Source of the DNA: a virus
DNA length: 53,790 bases
Reading direction: 5' to 3' (one strand)
Virus record (IMG/VR): IMGVR_UViG_3300045988_119356
Span: 1-53,790 of that record
The notes beneath the pieces were generated by a model. It was not told the DNA's origin, searched no databases, and worked only from the letters and a program-made list of their open reading frames with translations. This document shows, piece by piece, positions 1-53,790 of the stretch. The position numbers and the translations under genes are program-made. Within the stretch, counting starts at the first letter, position 1; each line of letters begins with the position of its first letter.

Positions 1-55
1 TTGAACGTGTTAAACACTCCGAACGACGTTAACAGGCGTTGAACGTGTTAAACAC
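1..55. repeat. Left terminal repeat: the last 17 nt of a 38-nt unit plus one full unit. It is identical to the final 55 nt of the window.
   Basis: Direct comparison of positions 1-55 with 53736-53790. The unit is TCCGAACGACGTTAACAGGCGTTGAACGTGTTAAACAC and contains two GAACGNSGTTAAMCA sub-repeats. Confidence 0.9.
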
Positions 56-199
56 CTCCCGGCGCGCTGTGCTGGACTCTTCTTTACTTTACTTTATAGC
101 AACGGCGACCGCGTGTTATGCGCGGGGCTTTTTATAACCGTTTAAAACAGCCGCCGACGTCCGGCGAATCTCTTAAGCGGTTAAGGGACCAGCGGGGTA

Positions 200-922: not shown

Positions 923-1150
923 TTTCGAATCCTCCAATTTTTGAGGGCATGCCCTTTGCTTCCCTCTTATGTCTTATTTATAACATATTTTTAAAATGTT
1001 GTCAATAAAAAAGTTGTAAACAATTAATATTTTATTTTGTTGTTGTTTGTTAACAAGTGTTTAGAACGTTGTGAGCGTTTATAACTAGTTAGTAACAGTT
1101 ATAAGCTGACTTAATCAAACAATAATATTCTCTATATCTCTATAGAAACT

Positions 1151-1205
1151 TTTTACTTTACTTCTTTACTTTACAAAAAAGTAAAAGTAAACAGTAAAAG
1201 TAAAA
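1151..1205. repeat. Imperfect palindrome of about 25 bp built from TTTAC pentamers (TTTTACTTTACTTCTTTACTTTAC-A6-GTAAAAGTAAACAGTAAAAGTAAAA).
   Basis: The inverted arms can be read directly. A TTTACTTTACTTT fragment also occurs at 96-108. Confidence 0.7.
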
Positions 1206-1284
1206 TGTTCAAATAGGAATCTGAAAACAAAAAACCCCGTCCAACTCTGTCCACGTTATTAACAGCGCTCCACAATCTCCAACA

Positions 1285-1312
1285 TTAACAACACTTAACA
1301 ACAATTAACAAC
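1285..1312 (+). promoter_or_regulatory. Three TTAACAAC direct repeats at an exact 10-bp period (iteron or operator-like array).
   Basis: Copies start at 1285, 1295 and 1305. The array lies in a 680-bp divergent noncoding region. Confidence 0.5.
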
Positions 1313-1475
1313 TCTTTGCGCGTTCGTTCGTATTGTTGTCAACGTTGCCGGCGTTGTTGGAGTTAAGGGGGGCCCTCCCCCCTATAAGCAGTTGAAGGCA
1401 CTTCAACCCGCCAAATTTGCAAACTGCTCAAAAACTTTTACTTGTTAACAAGTGCTGCCACCCCGCATTTAATAC

Positions 1476-1504
1476 TTGACAACAACTTACAGAGCTGATA
1501 TAAC
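1476..1504 (+). promoter_or_regulatory. Sigma70-like promoter: TTGACA, a 17-nt spacer, then TATAAC. It would drive the rightward block.
   Basis: Hexamers and spacing were read directly. It is about 120 nt upstream of the first rightward gene. Confidence 0.45.
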
Positions 1505-1623
1505 TGAGGGTGTTAATAACAATTAGAAGGGTTCGATTGACAATGACCGATAAATTAGATGCTGATAGACTTTATTATGTTAAAAAGAAAAAGAAAAGCT
1601 AAAAAAATTAAAAGAGGTGTTAA

Positions 1624-2409: not shown

Positions 2410-2555
2410 GTAAATATTTATTTTTTGCTTCTGGCTCTATTTCATCTTCAGCTTGGATATTGCTGAAATCTGATAGATATACTTATTTTGTTGTTCTTAT
2501 GGTAATAAGTTTAATATTATGGCTTGTCGGTGAATATAAAGAGGTGCGAGAATGA
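2406..2555 (+). CDS. Putative small membrane protein of 49 aa
   Basis: ATGA overlaps at both ends. It has a hydrophobic core. It ends ...KEVRE, like the end of the 1624 gene. Confidence 0.3.
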   Translation: MSKYLFFASGSISSSAWILLKSDRYTYFVVLMVISLILWLVGEYKEVRE

Positions 2556-3310
2556 CCGATAACACTACGTACGCTTACACCTCCATAAACTTATGCGAGG
2601 AAACCGCAAATGATATATTCCTGTATGTCGTTCGTAACCGCTCCGGTGGTATTGAGTTTATGGGGTGCGGAACGATGCCTGAGATTGTCAGTATGCGCGC
2701 CATTAAAAACAATAAATTTTTCAACCCGTCCGCTGTGTACGAGTATTGTATTTTATACAACCAACACTTCAAACGGCGTATAGATGCCCTTAACGCTCTT
2801 GGAACCGCTATACGCGCCATACATGGTAGAACACCGCGTATGAACTTATATTCGCGTGACTACAACAACGACAAACGCATCGTATGTCTGCAAACGGGCG
2901 AGATATTTACCAGTGCCGCAGAGATTTGCCGCAAGTATGAAATTAATCCCGGGCAGTTGAGCGATCATCTCAGAGGCGCTCACGGACGTAAGACCGTTAA
3001 GGGTATGACGTTTCTTTATGAATATAAAGTCCGTAAACAGCAAGACCTTTATAACCTGCTAAAATACTGGACGCCGCAAATGTATAACATAGCACCGGTT
3101 GATTGGGACCCTCATAACACCGGTTTGACTGAGGATATGATAGCTTATTGTTACGGAGAGTATTGCAAACAAGAAATTTGTGTGCATTGGTTAGATAGCA
3201 AACGCAATCGCGACGGGCTTGAAGTTATCACTCCTAACACACAAGTGACACCACCACCCGTCCAACTCCCAGAGGTAGAGAGAGTATCGCTTGACAATTT
3301 AAACAGTTAA
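2552..3310 (+). CDS. Paralog with the homing-endonuclease-type C-terminal DNA-binding domain
   Basis: RIVCLQTGEIFTSAAEICRKYEIN...HLRGAHGRKTVKGMTFLYEY matches the C-terminus of the 1624 and 51098 proteins. Confidence 0.55.
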   Translation: MTDNTTYAYTSINLCEETANDIFLYVVRNRSGGIEFMGCGTMPEIVSMRAIKNNKFFNPSAVYEYCILYNQHFKRRIDALNALGTAIRAIHGRTPRMNLYSRDYNNDKRIVCLQTGEIFTSAAEICRKYEINPGQLSDHLRGAHGRKTVKGMTFLYEYKVRKQQDLYNLLKYWTPQMYNIAPVDWDPHNTGLTEDMIAYCYGEYCKQEICVHWLDSKRNRDGLEVITPNTQVTPPPVQLPEVERVSLDNLNS

Positions 3311-3339
3311 TGCTTATTATGAGAGCGGAGATATAATTT

Positions 3340-3951
3340 ATGAACGCATATCCGACAAGAGCTTACGACCTACTTGATGATAACGAGCGGAAAGCGGTTG
3401 AAGAGTATGTTCAATATGTTGTAGCAGAACAAAAACGTAAAAATCAACGTATCGACTTAGCTCTCAATTTACCTATACCGTCAGAATATATAAAACGTTC
3501 TCGTGGTGCTTTATTGCGACCGGTGCCTCGTGCGGCTTTAGCTGAGCGCATTACGGAGGAAAGTAGCTCTTCGGACATATCACCATCTCGTGTTATAAAA
3601 GAGCTGGCTAAAATTGCTTTTAGCGACGTAACGGACTTTTTATACACAGGGCCGTTTGGTAGTGTCAACATAAAACAACTTAAAGACATACCACCCGACA
3701 AATCCGGAGCCATTAAGTCCGTAGAAACTAAAATCGGACAGGCAAGTACCAGCTCTAAGATAACAATGCACGACAAACTTCCAGCGCTCAAAGCCCTTTC
3801 AGAGATGATGGGGCTTACAGCGCCTGAGAATGGACCCGTGCTTGGTGAGTATGTAAAACAAGAGATACGCAAGGCCGCCAAAGAGCAGATTGAAGCTCCA
3901 GAGGCCGAGTATGTTGAACTTTTAGAGCATGTTGAGAGGGTTGAGAGTTAA
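3340..3951 (+). CDS. Terminase small subunit (putative)
   Basis: 203 aa, immediately upstream of and abutting the large terminase, in the expected position. Confidence 0.55.
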   Translation: MNAYPTRAYDLLDDNERKAVEEYVQYVVAEQKRKNQRIDLALNLPIPSEYIKRSRGALLRPVPRAALAERITEESSSSDISPSRVIKELAKIAFSDVTDFLYTGPFGSVNIKQLKDIPPDKSGAIKSVETKIGQASTSSKITMHDKLPALKALSEMMGLTAPENGPVLGEYVKQEIRKAAKEQIEAPEAEYVELLEHVERVES

Positions 3952-5714
3952 TGGGACAGATGACATTAACAGCTTGGAACGAACGCCAAACTGACAACAC
4001 CATACACCCTTGGCGACCCCATCCACTTGGTGCTGATGAATGGCCGCCAAATTATCCCGCTGTCTATCGTTGGCGGTCTAAAGTCCTCAAACAACTTATA
4101 TCTGACCCTAAAACCCTTAAAGCCGCTAAAGTCTATTATTCAACCCATCCGGCTGAGTTTATTATGGACTGGATGGACACTTATGACCCGCGTAAATCCC
4201 CTACCAACGCTAATCCAGCGCTCAGAGGTGAGAAATGGATGCCGTTTGTTTTTTTTAAGCGGCAAAAAGATGTAATTGACTTTTTTGAGTCGTGTTCGCA
4301 TGACCAAACGAGCGGGTTGGTTGAAAAATGCCGTGACTTCGGTTTAACTTGGCTCGCGTGCGGATATTCTGTCTGGCGCTGGCTGTTTATCAAAAATGAC
4401 GCTATCGGTTGGGGTAGCCGTAAAGAAACGCTTGTCGATAAGCCTGGCGACCCTGATAGTATTTTTGAGAAAATCCGTTTAATGCTTAAACGTCTACCGC
4501 GTATATGGTTACCGGCAGGGTTTAGTTGGGGGCGTAATTCAACCTATATGAAACTCTTAAATCCTGAGAACGGCGCAATCATTGCAGGCGAGGCCGGTGA
4601 CAATATTGGTCGTGGTGGTCGTAAGAGTATAATGCTACTTGACGAAGCTGCGCACTTGGAGCGCCCTGAGAAAGTTGAGGCTGCTTTAGGTGATAACACC
4701 AATGTCCGAATTGATATTTCATCAGTTAATGGCGTCGGTAACGTTTTCCACAGACGCAGAGAGAACGGCGTCATTTGGTCGCCTGACGTAACCAGTTATC
4801 CGTTCGGGTTTGTTCGGGTTTTTGTAGCCGACTGGCGCGACCATCCGCTTAAAACTCAAGAATGGTACGATGCCCGTAAAGCTCGTTACGAACGCGAAGG
4901 TATGGCGCATATTTTCGCACAAGAGGTCGACCGTAACTATGCGGCAGCCGTCAGCAACACTGTGATACCTTATCAGTGGGTTGAAGCGTCAATCGATGCT
5001 CACATTAAGTTGCCGTGGTTTGCCGAGGCTCTTGAGACTCATAAAGACGATTGGTACGCAGGGCTCGATGTGGCTGACGAGGGTAACGACCGTAACGCTC
5101 TCACACTTCGACAGTGGGTTATCTGGCGCGATGTGCAAGAATGGGGTGAACGTGACCCTGGTATCAGCGCTCGCAAGGCTGTTTTAGCTTGCAGAGAGCA
5201 TAAAGGTCATATCTGTTGCCAGTATGACTGCATAGGTGTTGGTTCTGGCGTAAAAACCGAATATAACCGCCTTACAACAGACGAAGGAGTTATAAGTGCA
5301 CATGAGATACCATTTATTCCGTGGAACGCGGGGGCTAGTGTTTTAAATCCTTTTGATAGAATTATCCCTGACGACAATGAAAGCTTGCAAAATAAAGATT
5401 TTTTTGATAACTTAAAAGCACAGGCTTGGTGGTCCATACGGACGAGGTTTTATAAAACGTTTAAAGCGGTAAGCGAAGGTGTAAAATATAATCCCGACGA
5501 ACTTATATCAATAGATAGCCGCATAACGCTTTTAGAGCAGTTGAAGAAGGAACTTATACAGCCGACGGTCGGTCATAGTTCAAGACTTAAATTGCTTATT
5601 GAAAAAAAGCCGGACGGTATGCGTTCACCTAACTTGGCGGATAGCGGGGTTATGGCTTTCTTCCCGGTAACTGACGGCTCGACAACAATTTTAACTGGTT
5701 CTTATGGTTTTTGA
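3951..5714 (+). CDS. Terminase large subunit
   Basis: 587 aa. Walker-A-like VEKCRDFGLTW, Walker B LLDEAAH, and a C-terminal acidic nuclease region. Confidence 0.85.
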   Translation: MGQMTLTAWNERQTDNTIHPWRPHPLGADEWPPNYPAVYRWRSKVLKQLISDPKTLKAAKVYYSTHPAEFIMDWMDTYDPRKSPTNANPALRGEKWMPFVFFKRQKDVIDFFESCSHDQTSGLVEKCRDFGLTWLACGYSVWRWLFIKNDAIGWGSRKETLVDKPGDPDSIFEKIRLMLKRLPRIWLPAGFSWGRNSTYMKLLNPENGAIIAGEAGDNIGRGGRKSIMLLDEAAHLERPEKVEAALGDNTNVRIDISSVNGVGNVFHRRRENGVIWSPDVTSYPFGFVRVFVADWRDHPLKTQEWYDARKARYEREGMAHIFAQEVDRNYAAAVSNTVIPYQWVEASIDAHIKLPWFAEALETHKDDWYAGLDVADEGNDRNALTLRQWVIWRDVQEWGERDPGISARKAVLACREHKGHICCQYDCIGVGSGVKTEYNRLTTDEGVISAHEIPFIPWNAGASVLNPFDRIIPDDNESLQNKDFFDNLKAQAWWSIRTRFYKTFKAVSEGVKYNPDELISIDSRITLLEQLKKELIQPTVGHSSRLKLLIEKKPDGMRSPNLADSGVMAFFPVTDGSTTILTGSYGF

Positions 5715-41793: not shown

Positions 41794-42210
41794 TTATACC
41801 TCCTTTAACCACTCCGGTTTGTTTCGATTCGTCCATTTATGCACTGTTGGATTGCTCCGATAACGCTCTAAAAGCCGTTGACAGTTGAGAGCAATATCAG
41901 CTTCGGTAACAGTGTACCATTGGAAATCGTTGTTTTTAACATTTTTATAACAATAACTAAATAAATCGTCATAAGGATAATTGACTTTGAATCCTCTAAA
42001 CTCCATTTCATCACATATCTCTTTATATCTTCTCAATAAATATGCGCTATGATGTCTTGCCCACTTCATGTGCCCTTTACCAAGCAGATAATGCTCAGGT
42101 GCGTCGTCAGTGTTTATAAGTTGTTTGATACATCTAGGCAACTCGCGATATTCCGCAAGTAGCCATAAATCTGACAACCATCGAACCGGTATAACATTAA
42201 CTCTTGTCAT
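41794..42210 (-). CDS. denV: Pyrimidine-dimer DNA glycosylase (T4 endonuclease V / DenV homologue)
   Basis: MTRVNVIPVRWLSDLWLLAEYRELPRC closely parallels the DenV N-terminus MTRINLTLV...LMAEYRELPRV. The size, 138 aa, also matches. Confidence 0.8.
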   Translation of the reverse strand: MTRVNVIPVRWLSDLWLLAEYRELPRCIKQLINTDDAPEHYLLGKGHMKWARHHSAYLLRRYKEICDEMEFRGFKVNYPYDDLFSYCYKNVKNNDFQWYTVTEADIALNCQRLLERYRSNPTVHKWTNRNKPEWLKEV

Positions 42211-42226
42211 AAATCCTCTCAACGTT

Positions 42227-42313: not shown

Positions 42314-42448
42314 TCAACTCTATCAACACCCTACGACAGCTTATAATACTTGTCGACACATTTTTACACACATTAACACGAAATTATACTTGACAGGTGA
42401 TATAAGGGGTTGTAGGGTTTTGTTATCTTATTATTTACGAGGTGAGAT

Positions 42449-42634
42449 ATGGATAAAAAAACTTTAAATCTTACAGAGTTAGCCAAGTACATTGGTGTTG
42501 GCAGAAAAACTCTCTATACCATGATACAGGACGGGCGATTCCCCGTTCAACCAATTAAAGGTTTAGAACCTAAACGTTGGAGTGTTGAAAAAGTTAACGA
42601 ATGGATAGAGAGTAAAGAGAATGATAACAATTAA
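42449..42634 (+). CDS. AlpA/Xis-like HTH DNA-binding protein
   Basis: LTELAKYIGVGRKTLYTMIQDGRFP resembles AlpA-family HTH proteins. Confidence 0.55.
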   Translation: MDKKTLNLTELAKYIGVGRKTLYTMIQDGRFPVQPIKGLEPKRWSVEKVNEWIESKENDNN

Positions 42635-44159
42635 TGAATTATTTTCAGGATTAGGAGCACAGATTGCTGCTTTCAAACGTCTTAATATACCTTGTGAAGT
42701 AGTAGGTATTTCAGAAATTGATAAATATGCTATACAATCTTACGAGGCTATAAACGGTCCTACGCGTAATTACGGCGATATAACACAAATCCCTTATTTG
42801 GATTATGCGGATTTATGGACATACTCTTCGCCCTGTCAGGATTTTTCAACGGCCGGAAAACAAAAAGGTATTTATAACGCCGACGGCAGTTTAACACGTT
42901 CGGGATTGTTAAAACACGTTGAAAGATTGCTTGAAACGTCTGTGATGTTAGGCAATCAACCTAAATATTTACTTATGGAAAACGTTAAAGGTTTAGTAAG
43001 TAAAAAATTCAAACCTGATTTTCTTAAATGGTTAGATAAATTAGAACAGTTGGGATATAATAACTATTGGCAAGTTTTGAACGCTAAGGACTATGGTATC
43101 CCTCAAAATAGAGAACGTGTTTTTGTTGTTAGCATCCGTAAAGATGTAGATACCAAAGGTTATAAATTTCCCTCACCTGTACCGCTTGAGAAACGCTTAA
43201 AAGATATGCTCGAACCTTGGGTGGACGTAAAGTATTATTTGAGTGATGATAAGGTTGAGAAATTTGCTAACGCTTTAAATAAAAAAATAGAAAATCAAGA
43301 TATTAGTTATTGTATTGATGCTAACTATTGGAAAGGAACAACACCACAACAATTTTTAAATAAAAATCGCAGACAATTAGTTAAAGAAGTTAGTAACACC
43401 ATTCGTTGTGGTGGTGGTGGTAGCTTGGACGGTAAGCATACATGGGATGTTGTTGTTGAACCTTTTATAGCTGATGATACACAAGGTTTTGACGGTGTTA
43501 GATATTACGATAATTATTCACTGACATTAAGAAGTGAGCGTTCAGGATTAAAAGTGGTTGAACCCTTACAAATAAAAGAAGCAACCCAAAAAGGATATGC
43601 TGAGGCTTATGAGTATGATAGTGTTTCGCTCGATCAGCCTAATAGCAAGACAAGAAGAGGTAGAGTTGGAAAGCAAATATCTAATACTTTGACTTGTTCT
43701 TGTAATATGGGGGTAGTTGAGCCTAAAGTTATTCAAGTTGGAAATATTGTCAACACCGGCAACTGGGATAACCCTCAGAGAGGGCGAATCTATTCGCCCT
43801 CTGGAATCAGCCCCGCTCTCAATACGGTAGGTGGTGGAGGATTAGAACCTAAGATTTTTGAAGAAGGTGTCGGTCTTAATCCTTTATCGAGAAAATTAGA
43901 ATTTAACGGATTTAAAGAAAACTCTCCAAGTTTAAGAGCAACCGATTATAAATGCCCTCATTGCTACTCGGATGGTTACCGTATTCGCAAACTTACGGCA
44001 AGGGAATGCTGGCGTTTGATGGGGTTTACCGACATTGAATTTGATTGTGCAAAATTGTCTGGTGTATCAAACTCACAGCTTTATCGCCAGGCGGGAAATT
44101 CAATCGTGGTAGATGTTTTAGTCGGTATCTTTAAGGAGTTGTTCGATGACAGATTTTAA
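42621..44159 (+). CDS. DNA (cytosine-5) methyltransferase
   Basis: Motif I LFSGLGA, motif IV SSPCQDFS, motif VI ENVKGL, and C-terminal motifs. Confidence 0.85.
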   Translation: MITINELFSGLGAQIAAFKRLNIPCEVVGISEIDKYAIQSYEAINGPTRNYGDITQIPYLDYADLWTYSSPCQDFSTAGKQKGIYNADGSLTRSGLLKHVERLLETSVMLGNQPKYLLMENVKGLVSKKFKPDFLKWLDKLEQLGYNNYWQVLNAKDYGIPQNRERVFVVSIRKDVDTKGYKFPSPVPLEKRLKDMLEPWVDVKYYLSDDKVEKFANALNKKIENQDISYCIDANYWKGTTPQQFLNKNRRQLVKEVSNTIRCGGGGSLDGKHTWDVVVEPFIADDTQGFDGVRYYDNYSLTLRSERSGLKVVEPLQIKEATQKGYAEAYEYDSVSLDQPNSKTRRGRVGKQISNTLTCSCNMGVVEPKVIQVGNIVNTGNWDNPQRGRIYSPSGISPALNTVGGGGLEPKIFEEGVGLNPLSRKLEFNGFKENSPSLRATDYKCPHCYSDGYRIRKLTARECWRLMGFTDIEFDCAKLSGVSNSQLYRQAGNSIVVDVLVGIFKELFDDRF

Positions 44160-46428
44160 CCTTACAACAGCTTATATCACGTCCTTAACCGGCAACCCTA
44201 ACACCGAGTGCGATTGGCGTATTATTAACGACCGCAACGCCGGTGAAATGGGCATTAACCTTCGCGGGTCGCTCACAACCGTTGCAGCTCAATTACAAGC
44301 TTACAACCAACAAGGTTATGGTATTTTTATGACTGTCAACGCTATGAACCCGACAGGCCCTCGCACACTTGAAAACGTTGCTTATACCCGCGCACACGTT
44401 GTTGACCTTGATGATATTATAAGCGCTCAGGACAGTTACAATAGAGCTGTGCAGTCCAATATGCCCCCGCATTTTGCGGTACAATCATCACAAGGAAAAT
44501 TTCACCTTTATTGGCTGGTAGAACCTTATAAAGATAATGATTTTTATAGCTTACAACAACGCAAACTCGTACAACTTTATAATTCAGACCCAAATGTTAT
44601 TGATGCCACTCGAATCCTGCGTGTTCCTGGTTTTTATCATAACAAGCGCGAACCGCAACTTGTAACCTGCTGGGGTATTCACAACGGTCCGAGATATACA
44701 GCGCAACAAATTGCCAATAACCTGGCCACAATCAATATTGTGTCTGTAGGTAGTAAACGTTCGGAGCTCGGTGATCCGAAATTAGCCGCTCCAAACATAA
44801 ATTTGCTCGTGTATGCGTTAAACACCATCGACCCGAATACACTTACTCGCGATGAGTGGATGGCAACGTCAGCAGCTTTTAAACAAGCCGGATGGTCTTT
44901 GACGGATGAAAACACCTTGCATAATTTATGGTTGCAATGGTGCGAAAAATATAAAGACGACAACAAGTCTGAAAATCTTAAAATGTGGGCGTCGTTCAAA
45001 GATACTCAGGTTGGTTGGTCGCGTTTTTGTCGTTTGGTGCCGGAAGTGTTGGCAATACAATATTTCGGTCAACCGTCGACAACCACTTCACCTGCACCAG
45101 CGACAACGCCAGAACCATGCGAGATGAATAACCTGCCGGAAATTCTGGACGCTACTGCAAAACAAATATGGTTTAAAAACTGTTTCTTTGTTGAAAGCGA
45201 AGGCAAAATTTTCTCACCGACTGGACGCTTTATGAATCAAGTACAATTCAACGGTCGTTACGGTGGTAAAGAGTTTACACTTAAAAATAACGGCGGAAAA
45301 CTAACCGACGAAGCGTGGAAAGCTGCTTTGCGTTCGGTTGATTGGTGCATACCAAAAGTGGACCATTGTCGATTCTTACCACAAGAAGCAAGTTTTAGCG
45401 TGATATTAGATGATATGGGGCGTAAAGGTTTAAACACTTATATTCCGGCAAAAATTAAAACTGTTGAAGGTGATATCAGCCGTTGGAAGGATTATTTAAC
45501 AAGAATTTTCAATACACCTGAGGATATTAAAATCTTTGAGGATTATGTTGCACATTGCATTAAATTTCCCGGTTGGAAAATTCCGTGGTCTGTGCTGTTA
45601 CAGTCCGCAAAAGGTATCGGTAAACAAATGATAAGCGATATTATCAAACACGCTGTCGGTGAGCCTTATACGTATCAACCGGACGCTGAAGAACTTGTTA
45701 GTGGTGTCAGTCAGTTTAATGGCTGGATGCGCAATAAATTGATGATTTTGGTTGATGAAGTGCGAGTTGGTGACCGTAATGACCTTATGAACGGGTTAAA
45801 AACAATTATTACCGACCGTCGAATCGCAATTGAATCGAAAGGTGTCGATCAGGAAATGGAGGATAACGTTGCTAACTGGATATTCTTCAGTAACTTTAAA
45901 GACGCTTTCCCGATTGATGAAAACGAACGCCGTTATTGTATTTTTTACAGTAAATTGCAGTCCGCTCTTCAAATTGAAGAAGCTGGTTTGAATAAAGACT
46001 TTTTTGATGGTATGTATCATTGGCTTGAGTGCGAACAAGGTTTTGAAAAACTCGCTTGGTATTATTTGCATTATCCGATTGAGCGCGGTTCATTACCACA
46101 CAGAGCTCCACACACATCATCTTATGAAGAAGTTATACGTATCGGTCGTAGCCCGTTACGTGTTATACTGGACGATAAAATTAACGCTGGTGAGCGTGGT
46201 TTTCGTGGCGGGTATGTCAGCTATGTTATGTTCCAGAAAGCTGTTGCTGAGAGTTCTATGCGCAATAAACCGCTTGAGCATACTCTTAAATCAATCATCG
46301 AAGGAAAAGGTTATCATGAGCTTGGATATACAAAAGCGCCTGTTCCTGGTGAAGATTTGAAACAACCAAGCTTAATATTCGGTTTGAAGGGTTTAAGTGT
46401 TGATGGATATGAAGGAGCGCAAAATTGA
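44146..46428 (+). CDS. Primase-helicase (D5/SF3-like)
   Basis: 760 aa. Walker A KGIGKQ, Walker B ILVDEV, and an N-terminal primase-like region. Confidence 0.55.
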   Translation: MTDFNLTTAYITSLTGNPNTECDWRIINDRNAGEMGINLRGSLTTVAAQLQAYNQQGYGIFMTVNAMNPTGPRTLENVAYTRAHVVDLDDIISAQDSYNRAVQSNMPPHFAVQSSQGKFHLYWLVEPYKDNDFYSLQQRKLVQLYNSDPNVIDATRILRVPGFYHNKREPQLVTCWGIHNGPRYTAQQIANNLATINIVSVGSKRSELGDPKLAAPNINLLVYALNTIDPNTLTRDEWMATSAAFKQAGWSLTDENTLHNLWLQWCEKYKDDNKSENLKMWASFKDTQVGWSRFCRLVPEVLAIQYFGQPSTTTSPAPATTPEPCEMNNLPEILDATAKQIWFKNCFFVESEGKIFSPTGRFMNQVQFNGRYGGKEFTLKNNGGKLTDEAWKAALRSVDWCIPKVDHCRFLPQEASFSVILDDMGRKGLNTYIPAKIKTVEGDISRWKDYLTRIFNTPEDIKIFEDYVAHCIKFPGWKIPWSVLLQSAKGIGKQMISDIIKHAVGEPYTYQPDAEELVSGVSQFNGWMRNKLMILVDEVRVGDRNDLMNGLKTIITDRRIAIESKGVDQEMEDNVANWIFFSNFKDAFPIDENERRYCIFYSKLQSALQIEEAGLNKDFFDGMYHWLECEQGFEKLAWYYLHYPIERGSLPHRAPHTSSYEEVIRIGRSPLRVILDDKINAGERGFRGGYVSYVMFQKAVAESSMRNKPLEHTLKSIIEGKGYHELGYTKAPVPGEDLKQPSLIFGLKGLSVDGYEGAQN

Positions 46429-47180
46429 GTAATATAGAATTATACTGGGGCGACTGTCTTAAAATCATGGACGGATTAATTGCAGACGGTGTTAAGGTTG
46501 ATGCAATTATTACTGACCCTCCGTATGGTACAACAGCGTGCAAGTGGGACAGCGTGATTCCGTTTGAAGAGATGTGGAAAAGGTTGAAAGCTTTAAGAAA
46601 GGATAATACACCTATCGTTTTATTCGGGAGTGAACCTTTTAGTTCTTATTTGAGAATGTCTAATATAAAAGAATATAAATATGATTGGTATTGGGAAAAA
46701 ACTCAAGCAACCGGTTTTTTTAATGCCAAAAAACAACCTATGAGGTGTATAGAAAACATAAACGTTTTTTATAAAAAACAATCTTTATTTAATTTTATAA
46801 AAACTTTCGGGCATAAGCCGATAAATTCATTTACTAAATATCTGAGAACAGTTAATAAAACAGAAGTTTACGGTAAATGCAATAAAGAAATTTCAGGTGG
46901 TGGAAATACAGATAGATACCCAAGACAACTTTTAACTTTTTCAAGTGATAAACAAAGTAATTATTTACACCCCACCCAAAAGCCTCTTGCTCTTATGGAA
47001 TATCTTGTAAAAACCTACACAAACGAGGGTGATACAGTGCTGGACTTTACAATGGACTCCGGTACAACCGGTGTAGCATGCAAGAATCTCAACCGCAATT
47101 TTATCGGTATAGAGTTAGACCTCAATTACTATATGATAGCACAGGAGCGGATAAATAAAAACCCCTCTCAACGCCAGTGA
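46425..47180 (+). CDS. DNA methyltransferase (N6-adenine or N4-cytosine, DPPY motif)
   Basis: IITDPPYGT (motif IV) and C-terminal SGTTGVA (motif I) show the beta-class motif order. Confidence 0.8.
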   Translation: MSNIELYWGDCLKIMDGLIADGVKVDAIITDPPYGTTACKWDSVIPFEEMWKRLKALRKDNTPIVLFGSEPFSSYLRMSNIKEYKYDWYWEKTQATGFFNAKKQPMRCIENINVFYKKQSLFNFIKTFGHKPINSFTKYLRTVNKTEVYGKCNKEISGGGNTDRYPRQLLTFSSDKQSNYLHPTQKPLALMEYLVKTYTNEGDTVLDFTMDSGTTGVACKNLNRNFIGIELDLNYYMIAQERINKNPSQRQ

Positions 47181-47442
47181 ACATCGAGAGGGGTACAAAC
47201 GTTCGAGGATTCGAAGAACATTTATGTAATTATATTAACACGTGTTAACGATGTTGTCAAGGTTAAAATTGTGCGGTATCGCCATTCATTCGGAAAATGA
47301 ACTGTTACCTGAAACTTGAACCTTTGTAGGCTGGTCGATTATAGCACCCGCACAATGCTTCGAAAGAAGTAGTAACAGGATAGAATTAAGCTGGAATATT
47401 TTATCTCCCTACGCCCTCCAGCTCCGCTCTATCTACGTTATT

Positions 47443-48865: not shown

Positions 48866-49990
48866 TTATTTAGACATCTGGTTAGATAAATCATAAAGTG
48901 ATTTTAATCCAACAGCATCGAACGGATTCACAGAACCATTCTGACCATTACCACCTGCAACAATCATACTTGCCGGGAATTTAACGGATGCAACAGCTTG
49001 TGCAATACCAACCTTGGTTTTATAATCCCATTCTGCAGCTTCTTGCGGTGTCAAACCAGCTGCAACTTTCAAGCGGTTTGCTTCAGCTTGAGCTTTACCT
49101 TCTTGGATAATTTTCTCAGCATCATATTTCGCTTGTTCTGCTTTGAGTTTGGACACGTCGCGATTCTTTGCAGCTTCGGTTGTTTCAACAATTGCTTTAG
49201 CTTTTGCATCTGCTTCTGCTTTAGCTACGGCCGCTTTACCTTGTTCGGTAATGGTAATTGTTTCTTGGCGTGCTTTTTCAGCTTGTGAACGTGCTAAAAC
49301 TGCGGTTTGTTCGGCTTCTTTTTGGGCGTCAATAATTTTCAAGATTTTTTCTTCAGGTCTTGGATCACCCATAACAACTTGTTGAATTTCAACGCCGTAA
49401 TCGTTCAATAAATTTTTGCCGATGATTTTGGGCTTGCCATTTTCGTCAGTTCTTACTTTTGCCAAACGATATGTTGTGCCATCTTCCATTTTGACATCTT
49501 CGTAATAAACGTCATAAGCACCATTTTGCAATTGTCCTTCGAGAACACGAGCGATTTCCGGTTTACGAGCTGAATAAGTATCAGATGCTGTAAACATCGG
49601 GGCAGTTTTATTTGACAAAACGTCGATAGTATTTTTCTTAATTAAATTTTCAACAACATTTTCATAAGAACCAAAATCTTTATGCAATTTCAAACGTGTT
49701 GCTTCGTCTGCCGGTAAACGGAATTTAACACTACCGGAAAAAGTAACTTTCGCACCGTCGGACATGGTTGTAACTTCTTCAAAATCAATATCACCAGATA
49801 CTCTGTAAGTTGAAACATCAGCGAAACCATCCCAATACATTCCCGGCTCACTAATGATTGACATTTCACCGGTTCCCGGAGCTTGTCTTACACGATATTC
49901 TGCGTAATCGTTAGAACCCCAAAGATTAAAAGCTATGATACTGCCGATTATGAAAACTATAAAACCGGCAAATATTTTATCACTGTTCAT
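48866..49990 (-). CDS. SPFH/band-7 (HflK/C- or prohibitin-like) membrane protein
   Basis: An N-terminal TM segment, an SPFH-like core, and an Ala/Glu/Lys-rich coiled coil (AEKARQE...AKAEADAKAKA). Confidence 0.65.
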   Translation of the reverse strand: MNSDKIFAGFIVFIIGSIIAFNLWGSNDYAEYRVRQAPGTGEMSIISEPGMYWDGFADVSTYRVSGDIDFEEVTTMSDGAKVTFSGSVKFRLPADEATRLKLHKDFGSYENVVENLIKKNTIDVLSNKTAPMFTASDTYSARKPEIARVLEGQLQNGAYDVYYEDVKMEDGTTYRLAKVRTDENGKPKIIGKNLLNDYGVEIQQVVMGDPRPEEKILKIIDAQKEAEQTAVLARSQAEKARQETITITEQGKAAVAKAEADAKAKAIVETTEAAKNRDVSKLKAEQAKYDAEKIIQEGKAQAEANRLKVAAGLTPQEAAEWDYKTKVGIAQAVASVKFPASMIVAGGNGQNGSVNPFDAVGLKSLYDLSNQMSK

Positions 49991-51097: not shown

Positions 51098-51460
51098 TTA
51101 AACTTTATTAACATATCTGAACGTCCTTCCAGCTAAAGTTTTCACGTTGCGAATACCTTTTAAATGCTTGCTCATGTTACCTTTACCAACATTAGCCCAT
51201 CGAGCAGCTTGTTCAGCGTTGAGAAATATATCACCTGTTTCAGTACAAACAACAGCTGATGTCGGTAACAGTTTTAAACCCATAAATCCGGCGAAATCAA
51301 TAGCGTGTTTCATAGCGTCCGAAAAATTGTCATGGACGGATAAAATTTTTATATCGCACAAATTATCAGGGGTAATATGTTTTGCTATTTTATCACTGCT
51401 GTTAGCGCCGATTTGTGTAATAGTACCGCATGTAACGGTATATGTGTAATAGTACCGCAT
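51098..51460 (-). CDS. Third paralog of the homing-endonuclease-type DNA-binding domain protein
   Basis: AVVCTETGDIFLNAEQAARWANVGKGNMSKHLKGIRNVKTLAGRTFRYV. The start is placed at the TAATG overlap at 51460 rather than the track's 51562. Confidence 0.5.
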   Translation of the reverse strand: MRYYYTYTVTCGTITQIGANSSDKIAKHITPDNLCDIKILSVHDNFSDAMKHAIDFAGFMGLKLLPTSAVVCTETGDIFLNAEQAARWANVGKGNMSKHLKGIRNVKTLAGRTFRYVNKV

Positions 51461-52041
51461 TAATTTTCTCCCGCTAATTTTACAGTTAAACCAAATATTT
51501 CCGCTTCTCTTATATCTTTGCATGTATGTATAATAGTACCGCGCGCATCTAAAATTTGCCACTCGGCTTTATTAACCGTTTCAGGATATAACTCGTAAGC
51601 CATTATCAGCGCTTGACGGCTTTTATCGGCGTTCCGGAAATATAACGGATCACCGAATAATACCGGAATGTTGATAATCATATCAGGGCCGATAAAATCT
51701 TTCACCAGTTGATAAATTTTAGCGCTGGTATAAAGTCGGTCAAAAATTGCAAAACCGTCCTGTAATAGTACTTTGTCATCAAACCAAAGTCTGTTTGCGT
51801 TCTCGACACTGCGTAATAGTACAGCGCGCCAATCTGGGTATTCTTCAGCACAATTTGTCGGCATCTGTGTAATAGTATCCCAAAACTTATTCATAAAGGG
51901 CGTGCCGCCGCTTTCAATAAGCATGATTTTCCCATCACTAGCCACAAACTCACCGGTGTTCGGGTCTTGATAAACATATTGAAGAGCTCCGCGCGTTGTG
52001 AGCTTGCTGGCGGCTTTATTCAAGAAAGGTGAGTAAAACAT
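51460..52041 (-). CDS. Hypothetical protein
   Basis: 193 aa. It contains several GTAATAGTAC motif copies in different reading frames. Confidence 0.5.
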   Translation of the reverse strand: MFYSPFLNKAASKLTTRGALQYVYQDPNTGEFVASDGKIMLIESGGTPFMNKFWDTITQMPTNCAEEYPDWRAVLLRSVENANRLWFDDKVLLQDGFAIFDRLYTSAKIYQLVKDFIGPDMIINIPVLFGDPLYFRNADKSRQALIMAYELYPETVNKAEWQILDARGTIIHTCKDIREAEIFGLTVKLAGEN

Positions 52042-52582: not shown

Positions 52583-52921
52583 ATTTCGATTCTCCCTTTT
52601 TTAATGGTATTTTACAAACTTGTTAAACAATGTCAAGATTTATTTGTGTGATGGTACAGGATTAAAACCAAATAAAAGCTTTTTTAATTATTTTAGCGTT
52701 TTTACCCCAATATAATTTCCTCATACCGGATATAGACGCGTTCGGGCCTACACTCGGGCAATTTTCAAGCTCCGGGCACTTATCATCTTTTTTTTAAAAT
52801 AAAAGTCTGTCCCGGTTCAATTTTATTTTTCAAATCTTTAAGCGTGTATAACATTTTTCGAATCCTCTCTATTTATTGTTTATATTATATTTATAACACA
52901 TTTTAAAATTGTTGACAACAA

Positions 52922-53191: not shown

Positions 53192-53659
53192 TTAGCGCTC
53201 CGCATCCAAATTATAATCAAAAAGTTTGACAAGTTCAGCAATCAAACTGACAACTTCCGGGCTGTTAACGTCGGCTTTTTTAAGTCCGGCGATATAATCC
53301 GGATCGGCTTCGCTGTGTTGTCCGACGTGTCTATAACAGCCGATTCTTTGCGTCCGTTTGTCCTTAACTTCAGGAAAAACGGCTAAAATATCAACTTCCT
53401 CGGTATATTCGTTAGGCTCTTCATAAAAAACAACTTTTGTTTTGAATCTGTCAAGTTTTGAGCACTCGTTTATAATATTTGAGCGGTCTATCAAATCACC
53501 TAAAAAATAAAGATTACCTTGATATTTTTTATAAATTCTTACTTTTTGATTTCCGTTTTTATATTGTTCTAAATCAACAATCATTTTTTGATTAAAACGG
53601 TCTAAAATTTTAATCGTTTCAACGTTAACAATTTTATCTGATGTATATATTTTTTTCAT
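53192..53659 (-). CDS. Hypothetical protein (first gene of the leftward block at the right terminus)
   Basis: 155 aa with an RBS AAGGAG. Upstream, TTGGAT, 17 nt, then TATACT form a promoter-like arrangement. Confidence 0.5.
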   Translation of the reverse strand: MKKIYTSDKIVNVETIKILDRFNQKMIVDLEQYKNGNQKVRIYKKYQGNLYFLGDLIDRSNIINECSKLDRFKTKVVFYEEPNEYTEEVDILAVFPEVKDKRTQRIGCYRHVGQHSEADPDYIAGLKKADVNSPEVVSLIAELVKLFDYNLDAER

Positions 53660-53708: not shown

Positions 53709-53714
53709 CAACAC

Positions 53715-53790
53715 TCCGAACGACGTTAACAGGCGTTGAACGTGTTAAACACTCCGAACGACGTTAACAGGCGTTGAACGTGTTAAACAC
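53715..53790. repeat. Right terminal repeat: two tandem 38-nt units, preceded by a partial unit.
   Basis: Read directly from the sequence. The last 55 nt equal the first 55 nt of the window. Confidence 0.9.

Follow-up and report, generated by a model that had tools for sequence, protein, structure and literature searches.

A clade-wide DNA module upstream of the small terminase gene in the divergent control region of an uncultured phage: packaging-site-like and origin-like features

Introduction

The 53,790-nt viral record IMGVR_UViG_3300045988_119356 (positions 1 to 53,790; the whole stretch is henceforth referred to as the window) contains a gap of about 680 bp between leftward and rightward genes, and the question raised by this locus is what function so long a noncoding interval serves in the phage. 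A first-pass annotation made from the sequence had described the gap as a divergent control region and proposed that it fits a replication origin and/or an early promoter-operator region. The underlying observation is sound and lies beyond chance. The divergent control region was upheld, its two promoters (PL and PR) being kept in the close relative L001, while an origin is possible but was not established. The strongest signal in the region was a clade-wide DNA module beside the small terminase gene (terS), which, judged from its sequence, looks at least as much like a packaging site as like a replication origin.

Results

The conserved module

The gap was measured at open reading frame (ORF) cut-offs of at least 40, 50 and 60 amino acids and was the largest ORF-free interval of the window at all three, spanning 945-1623 or 938-1623 (679-686 nt), with a runner-up of 262-419 nt. 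As annotated, it separates a leftward block (ORFs 551-937 and 200-529) from a rightward block starting at 1624. A possible 19-aa ORF or leader at 1543-1602 had been missed, so the last ~80 nt of the gap may be not strictly noncoding. Also missed were PL, five GTT triplets at 9-bp spacing and three phased A-tracts, each of which is described below.

Relatives of the phage were gathered as 80 viral contigs collected via the large terminase (TerL) and 20 metagenome contigs collected via a profile of the small terminase (TerS). The clade consists of uncultured phages of ~50-57 kb from gut and environmental metagenomes. Comparison of these sequences revealed an ~90-bp module at 1355-1445, unnoticed as a unit in the first-pass annotation, that combines GTT(G/C) units phased at ~9-10 bp, a G6-N3-5-C5-6 inverted repeat and three phased A-tracts. 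Its centre is the G6-CCCT-C6 inverted repeat GGGGGGCCCTCCCCCC at 1367-1382; the sequence of this hairpin had been reported correctly but at 1363-1378, four bases too far left. Neither the G-run nor the C-run varied in any of the relatives aligned (13 of 13), in contrast to the 3-5-nt centre, which differed in both length and sequence. The right half of the module (1383-1445, plus strand; alignment A2) opens with TCAAC and continues with the three A-tracts, CCAAATTTGCAAACTGCTCAAAAACTTTTAC. These tracts are spaced 8-10 bp apart, and autocorrelation over 18 sequences peaked at lags of 8-10. The A-tracts are best regarded as the innermost members of the right-hand array, three units of the CAAA type. 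The pattern found in distant relatives was (C/T)GTT(G/C), 5-8 nt, G6-N3-5-C5-6, ~25 nt, TCAAC and then A-tracts ending in CTCAAAAACTTTTA.

A covariance model, R1, trained on 13 module sequences, returned exactly one match per genome, always on the terS strand, at 24 related loci. The window scored 81.6 bits at 1355-1445, and matches outside the training set included L117 (66.8 bits), L127 (56.9), L130 (45.5) and L122 (38), with weaker matches in the L006/L124 group. TerL identity across the 24 module-bearing loci was 57-98%. When R1 was run over ~1 Mb of relatives on both strands, including phages P106B, X2_24 and 9NA, nothing was found beyond these 24 loci; the three named phages, which are cultured relatives, have neither the module nor arrays near terS and thus provide no experimental anchor. 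An exact-pattern scan of viral contigs gave three loci, all already known. Nine matches, approximately the chance number, were obtained from a bacterial genome scan and none was upheld by the covariance model, so the scan offers no prophage or host lead. Searching the control region by megablast and blastn against 50,697 phage records gave no meaningful match.

DNA-level alignment survived only in L001 (98% TerL identity), the other loci being beyond blastn detection around the module. Used as a natural footprint, this alignment shows that L001 has kept both promoters with their spacers, the TTTAC palindrome described below, the A-tracts and, in the hairpin, the G-run and C-run but not the centre. 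The intervening sequence is not conserved, 38-nt and 96-nt insertions are present there, and the downstream gene differs.

The arrangement of the promoters bears on whether the module works as DNA or as RNA. The flanking promoters all face outward, and none reading into the module was found. Rfam searches of the whole window at the gathering threshold returned three tRNAs and nothing else, and a search of 900-1700 at an E-value threshold returned just far sub-threshold miRNA-type matches on the TTTAC palindrome. Given the outward promoters, the absence of an inward one and the lack of an RNA family, the module acts as DNA. In every relative the G6/C6 stem is free of T-runs on both sides, and the terminator scan omits it; the stem is thus not an intrinsic terminator. 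A structured noncoding RNA or single-strand signal, consisting of two hairpins followed by an A-rich tail, would account for the second inverted repeat that follows the G/C hairpin with differing sequences in L117 (GTTTAGAGC/GCTCTAAAC), L124 (TGTTTCGGG/CCCGAAACA) and L013 (GCGGG/TCCGC), and for the A-to-G changes in L001, which preserve G-T pairs on the plus strand. Folding z-scores of this second segment were near zero in about half of the sequences, however, with neither strand consistently favoured, and the second 'stems' match inverted copies of the array units. Since the G/C runs never vary and only the centre does, there is no covariation, and the runs themselves appear to be selected. 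We regard an RNA function as very improbable.

Unit arrays around the dyad

Arrays of short units flank the hairpin on both sides. The unit sequence is phage-specific, the period is 9-11 bp and the copy number ranges from 3 to ~30. The window's left array consists of five 9-bp GTT units at 1322-1366 (plus strand; GTT at 1326, 1335, 1344, 1353 and 1362) that abut the G-run, and equivalent (C/T)GTT(G/C) units lie 5-8 nt before G6 in L001-L004, L009, L014, L016 and L117. The three TTAACAAC iterons reported by the first-pass annotation (1285-1312, plus strand; starts at 1285, 1295 and 1305, with 10-bp spacing) were confirmed, and form an additional set of opposite polarity. Their 28-nt pattern, TTAACAACNNTTAACAACNNTTAACAAC, had a single match in the window even with 3 mismatches allowed and was found in 0 of 100 dinucleotide shuffles. 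On the refuting condition set by the first-pass annotation, absence of the iterons from relatives, the outcome was split: the exact triplet is not kept, with two TTAACAAC copies retained in L001 and none in most of the others, but the phased-unit architecture is. Moreover, TTAACAAC is the reverse complement of the GTTGTTAA units of L005 and L007, and in L007 its reverse complement GTTGTTAAT adjoins the G-run at 9-bp spacing.

In other relatives the arrays are longer. L004 carries TGTTCGGGG and CGTTCSAGG units on the left and, on the right, nine copies of AAACACCCG; the left array of L008 reaches ~30 units before the contig edge cuts it; L009 has ~18 CAACACCCN units on the right; and the left array of L130 is GTGTGGTGC. 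Polarity flips at the hairpin. The top strand is GT-rich on the left (L004, L008, L130, L007 and the window) and CA-rich on the right (L004, L009, L016 and L130) in every case, and the arrays are thus inverted around the dyad.

Several other short repeats were observed. Two CGTCCAA/TGTCCAC units, 10-11 bp apart and with a weak likeness to DnaA boxes, lie at 1239-1256, and four occur in L001 (~335-360 and ~440-460) on either side of the 96-nt insertion. Resemblances to a DnaA box (TGTCCACG at 1250) and to an IHF site (TCAAAAACTTT at 1428) were weak. L012 carries the head-to-tail 9-mers TGTGGAACG, TGTGGAAAA, TGTGTAACG and TGTTGAAAA at 2881-2916, beside its first leftward gene; TGTGGAAAA is an 8/9 match to the reverse-complemented DnaA box (TGTGGATAA). 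A repeat of 38 bp, present in 2.1 tandem copies, runs from 53710-53790 into 1-55 of the window. Its units (GTTAAC, GTTGAAC, GTTAAAC and CGAAC, ~9.5 bp apart) resemble those of the arrays at the module, and it abuts the -35 of a leftward promoter, TTGGAT-N17-TATACT, of the gene starting at 53659. The 38-bp repeat may offer a second cluster of sites to the protein that binds those arrays. An 18-bp tandem array at the contig ends of L087 and L091 was rejected as iterons, its minus strand being a coding hexapeptide repeat.

Linkage to the terminase genes

The window's terS (3340-3951, plus strand) was identified by Pfam as Terminase_2 (E = 9.7e-11), and homologues with 44-58% identity were present in every module-bearing locus. 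In 24 of 24 loci the module directly precedes either terS or homing-endonuclease-like genes that have inserted ahead of terS. With terS as the first rightward gene, the module precedes terL by 730-880 nt in L004, L009, L010, L011/L012/L017 and L016. The distance to terS was 100-250 nt in L004, L009, L010, L011 and L016 and 1.9 kb in the window, GIY-YIG-like ORFs being inserted between wherever the distance is longer. Genes on the left side are not conserved among relatives, whereas terS always is. Arrays with a 9-11-bp period again occur upstream of a Terminase_2 terS in the distant relatives L021, L040, L106, L109, L110 and L113.

The large terminase gene, terL (3951-5714, plus strand), was assigned by tblastn. 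Its product is 59% identical to TerL of Rhizobium phages P106B and X2_24 and 44.7% identical to that of Salmonella phage 9NA, and weaker matches are annotated as PBSX-family or XtmB terminases; Pfam and NCBIfam searches of TerL gave no match. A PDB sequence search with TerS assigned no DNA-binding domain. Phage 9NA yields a pac fragment (PMC4153490). Homology of TerL to the 9NA enzyme, the PBSX annotations and the circular assembly point to a probable headful mode of packaging.

Conservation of the dyad could instead reflect a physical genome end, with the G6/C6 dyad as a cosN-like nick site or the module as a T7-like short direct terminal repeat flanked by arrays. The order of parts is lambda-like (a GC-rich two-fold symmetric site, a unit, bent DNA, further units and terS), and the dyad, like cosN in lambdoid phages, does not vary between relatives. 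Phage T7 has short-repeat arrays on both sides of its terminal repeat, which also speaks for this explanation. Yet, as indirect evidence from the assemblies, no sequence starts or stops at the dyad, whether among the ~11 near-complete contigs (50-57 kb), among the shorter contigs or in the window itself; nearby contig ends are scattered within repeats, and the relatives of TerL are of the headful type (PMC4153490). A genome end at the module is therefore quite unlikely.

Two independent metagenome contigs, L118 (25.2 kb) and L119 (21.8 kb), begin no more than 2 nt apart, at a C-run (equivalent to L117 1745-1747), inside an ~38-nt segment duplicated in L117 (AACGCTTAGTAACCCCC..CACATT) that lies ~135 nt right of the hairpin. 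This shared start is best read as a repeat-induced assembly break, a physical end being the less likely alternative.

The paralogous ORFs 1624-2070, 2552-3310 and 51098-51562 have a GIY-YIG-like N-terminus (WVYLV...EIVYIG) and a NUMOD1-like C-terminus (TGE.F.SA.EA.RKYGI...KG..F.Y), and Pfam returned no match for them. Homologues are found on the minus strand in L012 (2049-2459), L013 (6847-7209) and L016 (1742-2176). They lie right of the module in some relatives, left of it in others and are absent from others, a distribution that, going by sequence likeness, would be typical of free-standing homing endonucleases. The window's terS also has a promoter of its own (3291-3320; TTGACA-N18-TATTAT) only ~20 nt before the ATG, and in several relatives (L011 ~773-809, L009 ~3540-3568) the -10 of terS is almost on the start codon with no visible ribosome-binding site, which suggests that terS mRNAs may be very short-leadered or leaderless.

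Packaging site or replication origin

Our favoured reading, a tentative one, is that the module region would serve as pac for TerS (Terminase_2 type) and TerL (headful type). It is ranked above the origin reading because the module is steadily linked to terS and because there is a published rationale for TerS ring contacts spaced one turn apart. In phage SPP1, pac extends over the promoters and 5' end of terS, the cut site is flanked by the TerS-bound elements pacL and pacR, and TerS acts as a repressor of its own synthesis (PMC6316719). In small-terminase rings the helix-turn-helix (HTH) motifs are located approximately one B-DNA turn apart, and bendable A-tract-rich DNA is proposed to wrap around the ring (PMC4737164).

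Under the packaging reading, the 680-bp gap would be a central cis-acting hub with two layers. The transcription layer would comprise PL and PR with their operators, the TTTAC palindrome on the PL side being regulatory or structural. The second layer, pac, would be the non-transcribed DNA between the promoters at ~1285-1445, where a ring-shaped TerS would engage the one-turn-phased GTT(G/C)/(G/C)AAC units together with the phased A-tracts. The A-tracts should bend the DNA, which would wrap on the TerS ring as proposed for SPP1/SF6. Wrapping would position TerL for a first cut at or near the invariant G6-N3-5-C5-6 dyad, after which packaging would proceed by headfuls. Binding of TerS would also autoregulate terS, as is proposed because unit arrays abut the terS promoter in compact relatives. 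We infer the bound protein, cutting at the module and DNA bending from sequence.

The same elements can be read as a replication origin for the primase-SF3 helicase encoded at 44146-46428 (plus strand; Pfam RepB_primase, PriCT_2 and DUF5906), which is the candidate initiator. The inverted GTT(G/C) arrays would load two hexamers head to head at the G6/C6 dyad, the adjacent A-tract and AT-rich DNA would melt, and the GT-rich strand would serve as both the track of a 3'-5' helicase and the template of an archaeo-eukaryotic primase (AEP). We consider this possible but less probable than packaging. Among known systems, the TGTTCACC octamers in ori and crr are the binding sites of P4 alpha, an AT-rich region is flanked by short iterons in SaPI origins, and the SV40 core origin consists of a palindrome, pentamers and a bent AT tract. 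The window shows the sequence hallmarks of an iteron origin, in that the TTAACAAC triplet, the five GTT units and the arrays of relatives lie beside an AT-rich segment with a GC content of 0.21. The RepB_primase-PriCT_2-DUF5906 protein is encoded, at 49-69% identity, across module-bearing contigs. In the distant relatives L021, L040, L106, L110 and L113, arrays with a 9-10-bp period in both orientations start 50-150 nt past the primase-helicase stop, and the gene order of primase-helicase, arrays, (one ORF), terS and terL follows the classic scheme of rep and then ori. CTCCCCCACG is common to the central region of L040 and the right hairpin arm of L002/L003, the polarity switch at the hairpin was present in every case seen, and the similar units of the 38-bp repeat, ~1.3 kb away, are reminiscent of P4 ori plus crr. 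Short template motifs rich in GT are also recognised by AEP primase-polymerases; in the case of NrS-1 these include GTG(A/G) and TTTGGTTA (PMC8718748).

Against an origin, the candidate initiator gene is 7.5-8.7 kb from the module in the window's clade (8.7 kb around the circle in the window). This separation is a single evolutionary event. The orientation of the module and its closeness to terS are kept while all else around it is shuffled, and the best-conserved part is the GC dyad with the A-tracts rather than the arrays. For the primase-helicase NCBIfam gave no match and the PDB only two, both 'Primase' chains (6k9c and 6k9e); an origin-binding domain of the P4 type was thus not detected in it. 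GC skew, which the first-pass annotation had offered as a check, follows the direction of transcription and is uninformative about an origin.

Several points weigh against packaging in turn. Replication origins just as typically combine short repeats of either orientation with a palindrome and an AT-rich or bent segment. The arrays of distant relatives are found both immediately after the primase-helicase and before terS, so synteny cannot separate the two readings; likewise all of the larger module-bearing contigs also carry the primase-helicase, which like terS is a core gene of the group, and mosaicism therefore gives no discrimination. If the DNA is to wrap on one face, the expected helical repeat is longer than a strict 9-bp period. 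Sequence-defined units also fit poorly with the published report that SF6 TerS showed no sequence-specific pac binding (PMC4737164). Invariant GC dyads are more typically a feature of cos sites than of pac sites, and the second GTT(R)AAC-type cluster, the 38-bp repeat at 53710-55, is easier to explain by an initiator or regulator than by a terminase.

The two readings could also be joined in a start site belonging to neither described class, namely an AEP-primase/SF3-helicase origin coupled to the terS promoter in one ~150-bp element. Outward GT-rich tracks of 9-bp period and opposite polarity would flank the dyad for helicase loading and priming, and replication initiation, late transcription and packaging recognition would share the single element. 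As a joint claim this seems unlikely.

In addition, 10-bp-phased repeats of the GTGTGTGA type were observed in L115 (2692-2725), L108 (1878-1905), L099 (2719-2745) and the window (~42364-42385). They run into the -35 for a small HTH gene preceding the primase-helicase and are kept in relatives with a helicase just 37-42% identical.

Promoters, operator-like palindromes and the TTTAC palindrome

Leftward promoter PL (1005-977, minus strand) consists of TTGACA (1005-1000), N17 and TATAAA (982-977), and rightward promoter PR (1476-1504, plus strand) of TTGACA-N17-TATAAC. Each matches the sigma70 consensus at 11 of 12 positions (-35 6/6, -10 5/6), and together the two form inverted repeat I2. PR had already been annotated as sigma70-like; it is absent from a generic promoter scan because that scan demands T at the last -10 position. 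PL is predicted to drive ORFs 937-551 and 529-200. Both promoters, spacers included, are kept in L001 amid diverged surroundings. Relatives also have a TTGACA promoter equivalent to PR 70-130 nt right of the hairpin, and their leftward genes begin 390-1150 nt left of the module.

The 13-mer TTGTTAACAAGTG occurs at two places only in the genome, at 1047-1059 (~45 nt upstream of the PL -35) and at 1442-1454 (within CTTGTTAACAAGTG from 1441, 22-35 nt upstream of the PR -35). The duplicated palindrome of the first-pass annotation is thus borne out as a 13-mer at 1047 and 1442, but its perfect 12-bp form, CTTGTTAACAAG, is present only at 1441. A variant, TTGTTTAACAAG (TTGTT(T)AACAAG type), lies inside the spacer of a minus-strand promoter at 52636, and in L001 both copies are altered, to TTGTTTGCAA and TTGTTTACAA. 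One palindrome upstream of each promoter and a variant within the 52636 spacer fit a site for a common repressor or activator, and the TTGTTAACAAGTG palindromes are probably operators.

The TTTAC palindrome was present as described. It is an AT-rich imperfect palindrome at 1147-1209 made of four TTTAC, A6 and four GTAAA, with arms at 1151-1172/1178-1199 and extended arms at 1140-1172/1184-1216; the GC content of 0.21 given above is that of 1140-1216. Folded as single-stranded DNA it reached -12 kcal/mol (z = -2.84), with 1 of 200 shuffles equally good. In L001 the palindrome is the same but for one central base while both flanks have diverged, and its conservation is confined to this closest relative. 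Of the six genome copies of its unit ACTTTTAC/GTAAAAGT, three fall within these 300 nt, counting the one at 1434, at the end of the conserved module. Other relatives have differing AT-rich repeats of 20-48 bp in the same slot between PL and the module. The left part of the gap may be the operator region of PL or an unwinding element.

A purely transcriptional role for the whole gap was weighed against these data. The phased units would be sites for a small regulator, for example a ribbon-helix-helix protein polymerising on 7-11-bp repeats, with the A-tracts as an UP-like curved element for PR and the GC dyad as a further binding site. Such a role would suit the compact L122/L124 group, where the last A-tract runs straight into the PR -35 (CAAAAACTCTTGACA), and L004 and L009, where the right arrays abut the -35. 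Other short-period arrays adjoining promoters in this family would suit it as well: in L115 and L108, GTGTGTGA is repeated three times ahead of the operon for the primase-helicase, and the 38-bp repeat adjoins the minus-strand promoter TTGGAT-N17-TATACT near 53.7 kb. So would TTGTT(T)AACAAG, which falls within the promoter spacer at 52636. The distance from the dyad and A-tracts to the PR -35, however, varies from ~70 to >230 nt, with inserted arrays (80-160 bp) or, in the window, an inserted block of 35 nt separating them, so that a fixed promoter geometry is not kept. In addition, no conserved small DNA-binding gene accompanies the module, and arrays of ~18-30 units (L009, L008) are excessive for an operator. 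A solely transcriptional function is accordingly doubtful, and packaging remains the reading that we prefer for the module.

Two observations concern the promoters and their transcripts. The sequence TTGACAAC, which is the extended -35 of PL, PR and a minus-strand promoter at 47260, occurs 15 times in the window versus ~2 expected from base composition. Just past the stop of ORF 529-200, terminator-like hairpins with T-runs stand back to back at 109-125 (plus) and 167-151 (minus); the pair would terminate a short PL operon and stop rightward read-through.

Genome setting and other features

The first 55 nt of the window (1-55) are identical to its last 55 nt (53736-53790), an assembly overlap of a circular contig. 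The true genome is thus ~53,735 bp, and the leftward gene block is unbroken across the window ends. Rightward genes, terS, terL and portal among them, extend from 1624 to ~28.9 kb, and the leftward block runs from 53659 down to 48205, over the junction, and on to 529-200 and 937-551. Given this layout, the 938-1623 gap is the sole point of diverging transcription that adjoins packaging genes.

Replication genes at 30-47 kb encode an SNF2-type helicase (ResIII + Helicase_C), a DUF2800 protein and the primase-SF3 helicase; for a 675-aa protein in the same interval the sole NCBIfam match was DNA polymerase II, far below threshold. The phage also encodes a C5-cytosine methylase (42621-44159), an N6/N4 methylase (46425-47180), a pyrimidine-dimer glycosylase (41794-42222) and an SPFH/Band 7 protein (48866-49990). 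The three tRNAs are Cys (22906), Phe (29129) and Leu (42227, minus strand). The phage appears to be virulent.

At 47160-47260 a terminator-like hairpin (CCCCTCTC...GAGAGGGG) follows the methylase gene, and beyond it a leftward promoter, TTGACA-N17-TAATAT (47260-47231), is aimed back at the hairpin and the gene end. This arrangement is kept in L087 and L091, and the promoter could make a small antisense transcript.

Discussion

The module provides an uncultured clade with a precisely defined cis-acting DNA signal and a usable search model. If it is indeed pac, it marks the starts of packaging series, and the variation from 3 to ~30 units is a natural test of DNA wrapping round small-terminase rings. 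If it is an origin, it would be among the few defined origins for phage primase-SF3 helicases. Since the function falls in a known category either way, the gain is incremental. By sequence the module lies outside every described family, while its architecture would be of a known kind among cis-acting phage sites.

Four known systems are comparable. Origins with SF3 initiators (P4 ori/crr, SaPI ori and the SV40 core) resemble the module in their inverted short repeats around a palindrome with an AT-rich or bent tract, and resemble the distant relatives in which arrays directly follow the primase-SF3 helicase gene; they differ from the window's clade in that its initiator gene is 8.7 kb away, without a detected origin-binding domain of the P4 type. 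Ribbon-helix-helix arrays (omega heptads, ParR/parC and ParG) share head-to-tail repeats of 7-11 bp, direct and inverted, near promoters, but here there are no partition genes or conserved small regulator genes nearby, and the phage appears virulent. The cos site of lambda (cosQ-cosN-cosB, with R3-I1-R2-R1, upstream of Nu1) has the same order of parts, but the window's TerL is unrelated to gpA and akin to headful terminases, and no contig ends at the dyad.

The pac site of SPP1/SF6 (pacL-pacC-pacR, bound by the TerS G1P, which we take to be a member of Pfam Terminase_2) is the counterpart of the module under the packaging reading. There is no sequence similarity between the two. Both lie at the terS promoter or 5' end, and both have repeated boxes flanking a central site and A-tract-rich DNA, which is bent in SPP1/SF6 and predicted to be so here (PMC6316719, PMC4737164). 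Headful packaging would also be shared, as far as TerL homology indicates. Unlike the two differing box pairs of SPP1/SF6, the units of the module are inverted copies of one motif, from 3 to ~30 in number, and they surround a central invariant G6/C5-6 dyad.

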